From the sequence record MK962758: a stretch of DNA of 64,000 bases; one strand, 5' to 3'. The position numbers and the translations under genes are program-made. The notes under the pieces are model-generated. The model was not told where the DNA came from and searched no databases. It saw nothing but the letters and a program-made list of their open reading frames with translations. Origin of the DNA: Shigella phage JK55. Below, piece by piece: positions 4,091-4,221 of this stretch. Each line of letters opens with the position of its first letter. The stretch's first letter is position 1.

Positions 4091-4221
4091 CAGAAGACCG
4101 TTTACAGCAAAACTTAAACAATCTATTTCTCGGTAAAGAAAAGGCGAAGGTTCGATTCCTTCACTCGGCAGAGGTCGAGTTGGTGTAATGGTAGCACTTA
4201 AGATGATAAACAACGGTCTGG
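4091..4221 (+). ncRNA. tRNA-like / Y-RNA-like structured element (copy D of inter-tRNA family)
   Basis: 8-bp closing helix agaccgtt/aacggtct encloses a perfect T-arm-like hairpin gaagg-ttcgatt-ccttc (4146-4162) and a D-loop-like agttggtgtaatggtagcac; no acceptor/anticodon pairing found, so not a canonical tRNA. Confidence 0.4.

Follow-up and report, generated by a model that had tools for sequence, protein, structure and literature searches.

A circularly permuted tRNA-like RNA on a conserved stem in Shigella phage JK55, a candidate partner of a Ro60-like ring protein

In Shigella phage JK55, a Felix O1-like phage, we find a small tRNA-shaped RNA that is circularly rearranged, lacks an anticodon and is joined to a conserved stem that we term the handle. 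This RNA, element D, lies in a 64,000-nucleotide stretch of sequence record MK962758 (the window). It is a tRNA body in permuted order, in which a V hairpin is followed by a T arm, a capped acceptor-like stem, the counterparts of U8 and N9, and a D arm (Table 1). We consider it probable, if far from certain, that four handle RNAs (A to D) form a set in which element D is the tRNA mimic, and that the handle binds the Ro60-like ring protein encoded upstream to form a phage counterpart of Ro60 and its Y RNAs.

Table 1. Positions in the window of element D and its parts, of the related elements A to C and of neighbouring features.
Feature	Position	Strand	Basis
Gene for 471-aa Ro60-like ring protein, proposed handle-RNA partner	1690..3105	+	Pfam DUF2828 + DUF7788; PHROG 850 'RNA-binding protein'
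Pair of sigma-70-like promoter matches, at 3124-3152 and at 3215-3244, ahead of the tRNA array with A-D	3124..3244	+	Consensus scan
Element A: UGAC/GUCA outer helix, AGA//G loop, AGACCAAU helix, UACAGCAA, small hairpin module	3437..3514	+	Pattern search, MFE fold
Element B: common handle, another small module	3603..3672	+	Pattern search, conservation, MFE fold
Element C: common handle and hairpin module	3998..4080	+	Pattern search, conservation, MFE fold
Element D, whole: handle and circularly permuted tRNA-like body	4088..4224	+	Sequence, MFE fold, alignment/pair counts, RNAalifold, rotation test, covariance model
Handle 5' strand: outer helix UUAC 4088-4091, unpaired AGA 4092-4094, AGACCGUU 4095-4102	4088..4102	+	Fold, RNAalifold
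Single-stranded UACAGCAA, hallmark motif of the handle	4103..4110	+	Present in all four window elements
Junction helix 5' strand CUUAA (partner UUAAG 4198-4202)	4113..4117	+	Fold
V hairpin: UUUCU 4126-4130, loop 4131-4136, AGAAA 4137-4141	4122..4144	+	Folds, RNAalifold
T arm GAAGG / UUCGAUU / CCUUC	4146..4162	+	Sequence, Rfam tRNA model match
Acceptor-like 7-bp stem ACUCGGC/GUCGAGU, loop AGAG	4163..4180	+	Folds, pair counts
U and G at the positions of tRNA nucleotides 8 and 9 (T4181, G4182), then D arm GUGU / AAUGGUA / GCAC	4181..4197	+	Sequence
Handle 3' strand: AACGGUCU 4212-4219, unpaired G 4220, outer helix GUAA 4221-4224	4212..4224	+	Folds, RNAalifold

An earlier reading made from the letters alone (the sequence-only reading) had described an orphan T arm and D-loop mimic inside an 8-bp closing helix. 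The closing helix is present, with AGACCGTT at 4095-4102 pairing with AACGGTCT at 4212-4219, as is the T arm GAAGG-TTCGATT-CCTTC, and the D-arm-like sequence 3' of it is a canonical D arm (GTGT-AATGGTA-GCAC, 4183-4197). The arms are real, and element D is one of four paralogous handle RNAs rather than an isolated curiosity. The absence of acceptor strands holds for the normal order, in which there is no tRNA, but the strands do exist in permuted form (ACTCGGC, 4163-4169, and GTCGAGT, 4174-4180), as a hairpin capped by AGAG, with neither a free end nor CCA. Because this capped stem sits exactly between the T arm and the D arm, element D is a circularly permuted tRNA body rather than a pair of stray arms. 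The spacing from the acceptor-like stem to the D stem is exactly 2 nt in every D-type element found. The V hairpin occupies the site of the variable arm, with a loop of 5 to 7 nt among relatives, and a weak junction helix replaces the anticodon stem; conservation of this helix is partial, with 82.9% pairing in relatives and several cells broken. The handle stands where the anticodon loop would be, and element D contains no 7-nt anticodon loop. By sequence the elbow nucleotides G18, G19, T54, T55 and C56 are intact and U8, A14 and A58 are present, while position 15 is an A and the base before the T stem (48) is C or A in relatives, so that no standard Levitt pair forms. The helices of the MFE fold are also obtained independently by RNAalifold. 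Folding z-scores of single sequences are modest, from -1.2 to -2.0 for most elements, with -3.8 for Krypton555.

As the sequence-only reading had anticipated, none of the 25 tRNAs that ARAGORN reports for the window lies at element D, and no tool gives a complete canonical tRNA there. On elements in their native order ARAGORN makes no calls, nor does it call a tmRNA at element D. The Rfam tRNA model, run with lax filters, matches the T arm alone (model positions 43-63, 14.9 bits, E 1.8; gathering score 29), and no other Rfam family, including Y RNA, YrlA and tmRNA, matches element D at E≤10, also in a 251-nt search with lax filters. When element D is rotated at its AGAG loop, ARAGORN in intron mode recognises a tRNA extending over the entire body. 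Of 6 elements rotated at their capped loops, 5 are called, and all 6 when the threshold is relaxed; 600 dinucleotide shuffles yield no call, and cutting anywhere but the loop yields no tRNA. The rotated calls require an 'intron' of 23-54 nt at the place of the anticodon loop, and their assigned anticodons disagree (aaa, tac, ggg, agg, gaa and att).

Element D occurs in about 245 phage records and is kept with compensatory changes in three genera of Ounavirinae. Across 10 Ounavirinae variants the proposed structure is 95.6% paired, compared with 43-50% when the partners are slid against each other, and the outer and inner helices of the handle are 100% paired. Three pairs of the acceptor-like helix have both sides changed among these variants; the hairpin exists in Ounavirinae as three unrelated sequences, each one pairing. 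Structural equivalents are also present in phages whose neighbour protein is just 29-52% identical. A MAFFT alignment of the distant D-type cores left two sequences out of register, so we built a covariance model from the seven rows in register and re-aligned the cores with it. The 17 D-type cores aligned in this way come from different phages; in this model-fitted alignment the paired fraction of cells is 98.5% and compensatory changes occur at 13 of the 16 pairs, a result equalled by 0 of 500 shuffles. All seven pairs of the acceptor-like stem covary across the 17 elements, and four of the five T-stem pairs are changed on both sides across distant elements. The model scores element D, a member of its training set, at 74.4 bits, and ordinary tRNA-tRNA junctions at 30 bits or less. 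The loop of the capped stem, AGAG in the window copy, begins N-CCA in many relatives, like a tRNA 3' end; in the Moogle copy this loop is G-CCA-AACA. Two topologies are found: in the first, that of the window, the ends lie at the handle and the acceptor stem is capped; in the second, the RNA ends at a normal CCA acceptor and carries the handle as an internal hairpin that replaces the anticodon loop (8003-8116 in L008 and 6895-7018 in L048).

All four window elements follow one handle plan, which consists of an outer 4-bp helix formed by the 5' and 3' ends, an AGA/G internal loop, a helix of 7-8 bp (AGACCNNN/NNNGGUCU) and then the single-stranded UACAGCAA on the 5' side. Element A, conserved in L001-L006, lies between tRNA-Glu and tRNA-Met, and element B between tRNA-Met and tRNA-Asn; element C is directly upstream of element D. 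The gaps between the tRNAs are filled exactly by A, by B and by C plus D. The outer helix of B covaries in relatives (UUAC/GUAA versus UUGC/GCAA), and that of C, GAGU/GCUC, appears in relatives as GAGC/GCUC or GAGC/GUUC. Each of the two promoter-like sequences ahead of the array matches the consensus at 10 of 12 positions, a match that is not proof of function. We propose that A to D are transcribed within the tRNA array and probably freed by tRNA-processing nucleases cutting on either side.

In Klebsiella, Vibrio, Campylobacter, Listeria and Mycobacterium phages, DUF2828 genes have handle RNAs with covarying helices beside them, always on the strand of the gene; examples read directly are those of Klebsiella phage FBKp34, KVP40, Krypton555, Campylobacter F361 and Listeria List-36. 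Across 82 DUF2828 loci, about 13 copies of UACAGCAA would be expected on each strand; the gene strand has 130 and the opposite strand 7. A first helix statistic, which allowed G-U pairs and took the longest helix only, failed to separate real sites from random positions; we replaced it with a strict test for a Watson-Crick helix followed by G, set against random 7-mer anchors. At 68 DUF2828 loci outside Ounavirinae, 45 of the 132 same-strand ACAGCAA sites have such a helix of at least 6 bp and then G, compared with 3.1% of random anchors (p about 7e-34) and 1 of 30 ACAGCAA sites on the opposite strand. These handle sites comprise 32 distinct helix sequences, and 87% of them lie less than 1 kb from the DUF2828 gene. 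A handle under the strict definition is present in just 31 of the 68 distant loci. The association also holds in the other direction: a scan of viral contigs with the RNA pattern alone returned 120 stretches, of which 57 carry a DUF2828 homologue; RNA and homologue share a strand in all 64 matches and lie a median of 580 nt apart. That this stem recurs beside a Ro60-like gene in many phages with no relation to one another suggests an undescribed phage form of the Ro/Y-RNA particle. In Listeria phage List-36, an RtcB-type ligase is encoded 1.3 kb from the DUF2828 gene.

The DUF2828 gene of the window lies immediately upstream of the tRNA array elements on the same strand, and its product is predicted to adopt a Ro60 fold. 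The model predicted for it can be aligned with Ro60 along 392 residues (3.4 Å), and every lower match in the fold comparison is a bare vWA domain. In this model the protein comprises a ring of helical repeats and a vWA domain with MIDAS residues, and the latter (DxSxS at D279, S281 and S283, with T349 and D381) are invariant in 34 homologues. A Pfam search at E≤0.01 returned DUF7788 and DUF2828 only, with no TROVE match, and the Ro60 chains in the PDB were detected neither by phmmer nor by a 34-sequence profile at E≤10. The Ro analogy thus rests on the predicted fold. With this proviso, the protein most likely binds its RNAs at the handle. We rejected DUF5681, found in a second upstream protein that is small and basic, as the common partner, as it is confined to Ounavirinae and to 21 of 91 loci. 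Autoregulation could not be generalised either; a handle-like element of KVP40 covers the start codon of its own DUF2828 gene, and none is present in the window leader or in FBKp34.

Ro60/Y-RNA particles are conserved from bacteria to humans. YrlA is bound by Ro60 and modified by TruB and DusA in vivo, and we know of no established role for the tRNA-like domain of bacterial Y RNAs. A tRNA-mimicking Y RNA bound by Rsr/Ro60, YrlA is found in Salmonella Typhimurium, Mycobacterium smegmatis and some mycobacteriophages, and places a V stem-loop, T arm, acceptor-like stem-loop and D arm, in that order, on a terminal stem (Chen et al. 2014, PMC4201824). Element D shares with it this module order, a terminal stem made by the 5' and 3' ends, T-loop and D-loop nucleotides of tRNA type, a gene close to and on the same strand as that of a ring protein with a Ro60 fold (predicted here) and the company of shorter paralogues (YrlB there, A-C here). 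These likenesses, together with the compensatory conservation and the distant equivalents, support the view of the sequence-only reading that this is a Y-RNA-like tRNA mimic rather than a decayed tRNA. Element D differs from YrlA in that the Ro-binding motif GNCGAAN0-1G is missing; the 5' strand of its terminal stem is UUACAGAAGACCGUU-UACAGCAA, with no GNCGAA, and UACAGCAA follows an AGR...YCU-G helix instead. In addition, the partner here would be a DUF2828/DUF7788 rather than a Pfam TROVE protein, the covarying 15:48 Levitt pair of YrlA is not kept, the genes for A to D lie inside a phage tRNA array, and some relatives of element D are un-permuted, their CCA end being free and the handle forming an internal hairpin.

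A phage precedent is provided by Thermus phage phiLo, in which binding has been shown for phiRo60 with Yrl1 and Yrl2, RNAs that were found by their CGAA motif and for which no tRNA-like module is described (PMC12135203). In common with Ro60/Y-RNA particles, that of phiLo included, the JK55 system has a protein (predicted here) in which helical repeats form a ring and a vWA domain carries MIDAS residues, and several small RNAs beside the gene with a terminal stem and variable internal modules. It differs from phiRo60/Yrl in having no detectable sequence similarity in protein or RNA, and the JK55 partnership is a proposed one. Another comparison is with tmRNA, whose CCA end can be charged and which contains a tag reading frame, lacks a true D arm and exists also in a two-piece permuted form. 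Element D resembles tmRNA in that each imitates part of a tRNA (acceptor stem and T arm), has no anticodon arm and is known in a permuted gene order, but element D carries a canonical D arm and neither a chargeable CCA end nor a tag reading frame.

Element D might instead be a free-standing decoy, an imitation of tRNA that cannot be cleaved and absorbs host tRNA-targeting defence nucleases or tRNA-sensing proteins without any Ro-like protein, its handle serving stability or processing. Its intact elbow, its lack of an anticodon loop and CCA, and its location within a 25-tRNA array would all suit such a role, and a competitive-inhibitor idea is published for YrlA (PMC7790460). We nevertheless regard this as unlikely, for it leaves unexplained why the handle and UACAGCAA are conserved on RNAs that have no tRNA-like module (A-C and many others), and why handle RNAs track DUF2828 genes on the same strand in unrelated phages. 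Another possibility is a cis-acting spacer, in which a mimic of the T arm and acceptor recruits RNase P, RNase Z or RNase E to cleave the tRNA precursor and the product itself is functionless. The exact filling of the inter-tRNA gaps by A, B and C plus D and the N-CCA at the start of many capped loops fit such a spacer, but Listeria, Campylobacter and Mycobacterium phages carry their handle RNAs on either flank of the DUF2828 gene and not within a tRNA array. Most tRNA junctions of the window manage without such an element, and a spacer does not require deep conservation of an 8-nt single-stranded motif, which makes this explanation quite improbable in our view.

Two further alternatives take the tRNA likeness as ancestry or as function. 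Ordinary tRNA-tRNA junctions, where the T arm and 3' acceptor strand of one gene meet the 5' acceptor strand and D arm of the next, have the same arm order as element D and score weakly with the D-type model; Chen et al. (PMC4201824) flagged this junction artefact, and a tandem-tRNA junction is a plausible evolutionary origin. That element D is today a non-functional remnant, decayed or rearranged, of such a junction is very improbable, as its acceptor-like strands pair with each other and covary both within Ounavirinae and across phages, its model score of 74 bits stands well apart from the 30 bits or less of junctions, and it is kept in hundreds of records with analogues in distant phages. 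A true permuted tRNA gene, with a transcript that is circularised or ligated and re-cut into a decoding tRNA, would account for the 3' half preceding the 5' half, the tRNA call on rotation, the N-CCA after the 3' acceptor strand in some relatives and the existence of un-permuted versions with normal ends. Soma et al. are said to have described such genes in Cyanidioschyzon merolae in 2007, where normal decoding tRNAs reportedly arise from them by way of a circular intermediate and the action of a splicing endonuclease. Element D shares with them a T arm and 3' acceptor strand upstream of the 5' acceptor strand and D arm, but has no anticodon loop or consistent anticodon and, in the window copy, a 4-nt AGAG cap in place of CCA; un-permuting it restores no complete decoding tRNA. 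Nor is a gap in the tRNA set left for it to fill: ARAGORN lists no tRNA-Trp, and we rejected element D as a permuted tRNA-Trp because a tRNA-Trp(CCA)-like gene at 5073-5150 explains the omission and element D has no anticodon loop. We therefore give the decoding-tRNA explanation very little credence.

Under the Ro60-like reading that we prefer, the handle RNAs and the ring protein would together make a phage counterpart of the Ro60/Y-RNA particle. Having no anticodon loop and no CCA end, element D cannot decode or be charged, but proteins that sense the shape of tRNA may still recognise it. It could hold such proteins, or else tRNA substrates, on the ring, much as Y RNA tethers PNPase to Rsr. 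Alternatively, it could act as an uncleavable competitor of tRNA-targeting nucleases, in line with the competitive-inhibitor proposal for the anticodon-loop-less tRNA-like domain of YrlA (PMC7790460).

A broader reading, plausible but held tentatively, is that the ACAGCAA-handle RNAs are an undescribed and widespread phage ncRNA family, found at least in phages of Enterobacteria, Vibrio, Campylobacter, Listeria and Mycobacterium, whose members are the cognate ligands of DUF2828-class proteins. The handle would then be a portable tag placed on tRNA bodies in two permuted topologies, and the anticodon-less 'handled tRNAs' on the ring would counter host tRNA-targeting defences or repair the damage from them. 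Neither Rfam nor the literature that we searched describes the handle RNAs. If this reading is right, a second Ro60-fold protein family without sequence similarity to the first has its own Y-like RNAs, with another handle and the same tRNA mimicry, which would lend independent evolutionary support to tRNA mimicry as central to Ro-type particles. Felix O1, KVP40, Listeria P100-like phages and cluster L mycobacteriophages would offer tractable systems in which to distinguish tethering from the blocking of anticodon nucleases. It would also account for hundreds of gaps in tRNA arrays that are un-annotated or mis-annotated ('tRNA-OTHER', 'hypothetical protein' or tRNAs with long 'introns'). At the site of element D itself, one GenBank record carries a 129-nt tRNAscan annotation, 'tRNA-Thr-GGT'; read from the sequence, this call takes the T arm of element D and pairs just 5 of 7 acceptor positions, using sequence inside element C.

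Element D (4088-4224, plus strand) is a conserved tRNA mimic, circularly permuted and carried on a handle, that is, an outer helix, an AGA/G loop, a 7-8-bp helix and a single-stranded motif on the 5' side. The closing helix, T arm and D arm described in the sequence-only reading are all present in the sequence. That reading had also held that neither acceptor strands nor an anticodon arm occur in the normal order. This stands for the normal order, with no anticodon and no native tRNA call, but not for the acceptor strands, which are present in permuted form as a capped hairpin that had been overlooked. 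The hairpin runs from immediately 3' of the T stem to 2 nt ahead of the D stem, and its strands together with these 2 nt take the tRNA positions of both acceptor strands and nucleotides 8 and 9. The order of T arm, acceptor 3' strand, cap, acceptor 5' strand and D arm is that of a circular permutation of the tRNA body, and the MFE fold has the same multi-branch shape within the closing helix. As had been anticipated, ARAGORN calls no tRNA at this site, and the Rfam tRNA model, run with lax filters, recognizes the T arm alone (14.9 bits, E 1.8), with no match to another family.

Positions of the handle elements and associated features (window coordinates unless a locus number, L, is given)
Feature	Position	Description
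Element A	3437-3514	Handle and small hairpin module
Element B	3603-3672	Handle and small hairpin module
Element C	3998-4080	Handle and small hairpin module
Element D	4088-4224	Handle and tRNA-like body
Closing helix of D	4095-4102 / 4212-4219	8 bp, AGACCGTT / AACGGTCT
T arm of D	4146-4162	5-bp stem, loop TTCGATT
Acceptor-like hairpin of D	4163-4180	7 bp, ACTCGGC-AGAG-GTCGAGT; fills the 18 nt between T arm and D arm
D arm of D	4183-4197	GTGT-AATGGTA-GCAC
DUF5681 protein, 123 aa	1237-1608	Directly upstream of the Ro-like gene; very basic N-terminus MKNRTNKGQFKKGQSGNPSGRPKGSRNK
Promoter-like sites	3124 and 3215	Upstream of the tRNA array
Handle-motif variants	L037 6432-6485; L028 8450-8576; L081 6621-6683 and 7459-7520	
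N-CCA loops	L001 3571-3592 (Moogle); L026 4417-4490; L081 7459-7520; L089 5563-5623	
Klebsiella phage FBKp34	3' of gene	Protein 52% identical to window ORF; four TACAGCAA elements
Vibrio phage KVP40	tRNA region; one across the gene's own start codon	Protein 46% identical
Mycobacterium phage Krypton555	3' of gene	Protein 34% identical; three elements
Campylobacter phage F361	Between gene and tRNA-Met	Protein 37% identical; two elements
Listeria phage List-36	5' of gene	Protein 29% identical; three elements; RtcB-type ligase 1.3 kb off

We define a D-type element by the handle, T arm, capped acceptor-like stem, exactly 2 nt and D arm. In a rotation test, such elements were cut at the capped loop, the terminal helix was closed with GAAA, ACCA was added and ARAGORN was run in intron mode. 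Six D-type elements in native order gave zero calls in this mode. Once rotated, five of the six were called as a tRNA over the whole body, and all six at a relaxed threshold; dinucleotide shuffles were never called (0/600). When element D of the window was cut every 5 nt, the cut in the AGAG loop was the sole one to give a call. The anticodons assigned after rotation (aaa, tac, ggg, agg, gaa and att) include none conserved among the six, and the 23-54-nt 'intron' of these calls is the terminal helix region.

In phage ASO1B, GenBank carries a 129-nt tRNAscan-SE 'tRNA-Thr-GGT' (L003 2959-3087; window ~4039-4171) that takes in the T arm of D together with the acceptor-like hairpin's 5' strand. 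Five of its seven acceptor positions pair, with element C sequence, and the GGU comes from the V hairpin loop; the annotation looks like an error produced by the mimic.

Element D occurs in about 245 phage records, mostly unlabelled and otherwise as 'hypothetical protein' or 'tRNA-OTHER'; the Felix O1 RefSeq record has nothing annotated in its gap. The A-D order is identical in Felixounavirus, Suspvirus and Mooglevirus. Three unrelated pairing sequences form the acceptor-like hairpin (ACUCGGC/GUCGAGU; ACACGU/GCGUGU, with a UACG loop; ACCCUUC/GAAGGGU), and the outer handle helix covaries among copies (UUAC/GUAA, UUGC/GCAA, UGAC/GUCA, GAGC/GCUC). In an alignment of 10 sequences, pairing in the proposed structure reaches 95.6% versus 43-50% with the partners slid, and the acceptor-like helix has three pairs with both sides changed and none broken. 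The outer helix, handle helix, T arm, acceptor-like hairpin and D arm also emerge independently from RNAalifold. The weak point of the structure is the CUUAA/UUAAG helix in the place of the anticodon stem, which is kept only in part. Two other origins for such a body, the decayed junction of tandem tRNA genes and a true permuted tRNA gene, are both contradicted by this covariation and by the absence of any anticodon. The earlier proposal of a tRNA mimic rather than a decayed tRNA is supported and sharpened.

In a Felix O1-like contig (L014 ~7462-7530), the T arm of D is joined to the 3' part of the adjoining tRNA-Lys and the remainder has been lost, apparently when T arms recombined.

JK55 is a Felix O1-like myovirus (Felixounavirus, Ounavirinae), and many Escherichia and Salmonella phages of this genus are 97-99% identical to window 3100-4400. 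ARAGORN finds 25 tRNA genes at 3271-8104, and tRNAs are the only Rfam matches at the gathering threshold. Elements A and B fill one tRNA gap each, while C and D together lie between tRNA-Asp and tRNA-Lys. It is a reasonable inference that A-D are co-transcribed with the array and released by tRNA-processing enzymes. The window contains four copies of the motif GAAGACC-NNN-TACAGCAA (3442, 3608, 4003 and 4093) versus 0.15 expected, each with an NNN-GGTCTGG partner downstream. All four elements adopt one handle fold, with an outer 4-bp helix, AGA opposite a single G and a 7-8-bp helix, and leave UACAGCAA unpaired on the 5' side. Variants with GCAGCAA or UCAGCAA replacing UACAGCAA are seen in distant phages, so counts of the exact motif underestimate the family.

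D-type elements are found in FBKp34, Krypton555 and the metagenomic contigs L026, L037, L048 and L081. As read from their sequences, those of FBKp34, L026 and Krypton555 have class I tRNA geometry (D arm, 5-bp stem, 5-nt NGGUC variable loop, T arm), and the MFE structure of the Krypton555 element has the class I shape (z = -3.8). Under a covariance model of the T/acceptor-like/D core, true elements reach 42-75 bits and ordinary tRNA-tRNA junctions no more than 30. Across 17 distinct cores, 98.5% of cells are paired versus 43-50% when slid and 13 of 16 pairs, including all seven acceptor-like ones, show compensatory change, in an alignment that is biased towards the structure because it was fitted to the model and that includes one core resembling an ordinary tRNA junction and another that joins two un-permuted elements.

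The capped loops often start with N-CCA (Moogle G-CCA-AACA, L026 G-CCA-AUU, L081 G-CCA-CAC, Krypton555 CCA-UAAA); that of the window element is AGAG, without N-CCA. For D-type elements, the N-CCA loops suggest that cleavage by RNase P, with trimming of the 3' end, could leave a nicked molecule ending in CCA; such a form is reported for YrlA, a tRNA-mimicking bacterial Y RNA, of M. smegmatis. An un-permuted topology, tRNA-like with normal acceptor ends and CCA, is found at L008 8003-8116 (FBKp34; labelled a 114-nt tRNA-Asp in GenBank) and L048 6895-7018, where an internal capped handle hairpin, followed by UUACAGCA or UUCAGCA, takes the anticodon loop's place. Since both topologies are found, the functional unit seems to combine a tRNA body with a handle, in either of the two circular permutations.

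The handle marks a widespread and apparently undescribed phage RNA family linked to a Ro60-fold protein. Homologues of ORF 1690-3105 (+), a DUF2828 gene, occur in 709 phage records; the analysis covered 80 viral-contig loci and several annotated phages. In 82 loci, TACAGCAA is found 130 times on the gene strand versus 7 on the other (~13 expected per strand). At 45 of 132 same-strand ACAGCAA sites in 68 non-Ounavirinae loci, the preceding helix strand has an exact Watson-Crick complement of at least 6 bp downstream, then G; the rate is 3.1% for random 7-mer anchors (p ~7e-34) and 1/30 on the opposite strand. The helices comprise 32 distinct sequences, 30 with an AG start and CUG end, and 87% of sites are no more than 1 kb from the gene. 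Scanning viral contigs from the RNA side, for TACAGCAA and then a T-loop 18-48 nt later, returned at least 120 stretches. Among the matches listed, 57 stretches carry a DUF2828 homologue, a lower bound because many are short, and the RNA matches there are all on the gene strand (64/64), at a median distance of 580 nt. A rule-based parser found no recognizable T arm in only 7 of the 130 matches listed; the four of these seven that were read lie in apparently ordinary or coding sequence.

The 471-aa product of ORF 1690-3105, whose 3' end lies 166 nt ahead of the first tRNA, has matches in Pfam (DUF2828 and DUF7788) and in PHROG (850, 'RNA-binding protein'). No sequence-level match to solved structures was obtained with a single query or a 34-sequence profile. 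Its AlphaFold2 model (pLDDT 83.7, pTM 0.84) is Ro60-like over the full length, and the best nine Foldseek matches in the PDB are every one Ro60. Across the family, there is no variation in the MIDAS-type residues (DxSxS, T, D), and some GenBank records name homologues 'Ro-like RNA binding protein'. The DUF5681 gene accompanies it only in Ounavirinae (21/91 loci), leaving DUF2828 as the consistent neighbour. Phage LeBron, whose genes also include an RNA ligase and a polynucleotide kinase, has a homologue that was toxic when overexpressed in a 2026 screen, which mentions no RNA partner. In KVP40 (L007 5962-6006), a handle-like GACAUU-UUACAGCAA...AAUGUC-AG spans the RBS and ATG of its own DUF2828 gene, which hints at autoregulation; the window leader (1609-1689) has no counterpart.

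The closest described RNA is YrlA, known from Salmonella, M. smegmatis and some mycobacteriophages, whose ends form a Ro60-binding stem and whose internal stem-loops run V, T, acceptor-like, D (PMC4201824). Element D shares this architecture and genomic logic, but lacks the YrlA-defining motif GNCGAAN0-1G, and its putative partner is not TROVE by sequence, whereas that of YrlA is of the TROVE family. The search by Chen et al. covered only TROVE-annotated genomes (PMC4201824); a later paper gives their phage matches as mycobacteriophages, CcrColossus and Bacillus phage G. We found no description of the handle RNA in the literature searched, in which the phage list of Chen et al. is represented by that later summary, and no Rfam family. 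On these grounds, we file element D as YrlA-like in its working and outside the YrlA family.

A phage Ro-like particle is the reading with most support, and for it we infer transcription, processing, binding and function alike. The ring protein would bind the handle, and the variable modules would confer different specificities, with D offering a tRNA-shaped surface unable to decode or be charged. It is plausible that D would act as a tether between the ring and tRNA substrates or enzymes that bind tRNA, in the manner of Y RNA and PNPase. Competitive inhibition of anticodon nucleases, proposed for YrlA because it has no anticodon loop (PMC7790460), is a plausible role for D as well, and the two would be compatible. 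A role in tRNA damage or defence would fit both the placement in a tRNA array and the RtcB ligase near the Listeria homologue. Besides the Ro-like particle, we considered that D might act as a decoy independently of the protein or serve as a processing spacer.

Other features of the array were also observed. A tRNA-Trp(CCA)-like gene lies at 5073-5150, with a 7-bp acceptor (ATGGGAC/GTCCCAT), GCCA and a D region of unusual length. It is probably the source of the Trp tRNA absent from the 25 calls; ARAGORN does not call it and its Rfam match is weak (tRNA-Sec model, 23 bits, E 0.41). At 4605-4851, a strong promoter-like site (4620-4648) is followed by a tmRNA-like stretch, with sub-threshold Rfam matches to tmRNA_permuted (30.8 bits, 4547-4730) and tmRNA (15.9 bits, 4662-4851). 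The frame from GCA at 4698-4730 reads ANDNVFLAVA*, resembling a tmRNA tag; ARAGORN makes no tmRNA call here, and neither T arm nor acceptor is seen at the 3' end. Finally, two hairpins lying between tRNA genes, at 3966-3998, past tRNA-Asp, and at 6991-7022, between tRNA-Gln and tRNA-His, have the identical loop GTTCTTACGAG (exact at 3975-3985 and 7000-7010). Near 4820-4850 and 5430-5510 there are similar hairpins ('ctttaaag...'), and the GTTCTTACGAG-loop hairpins may be processing or termination signals.
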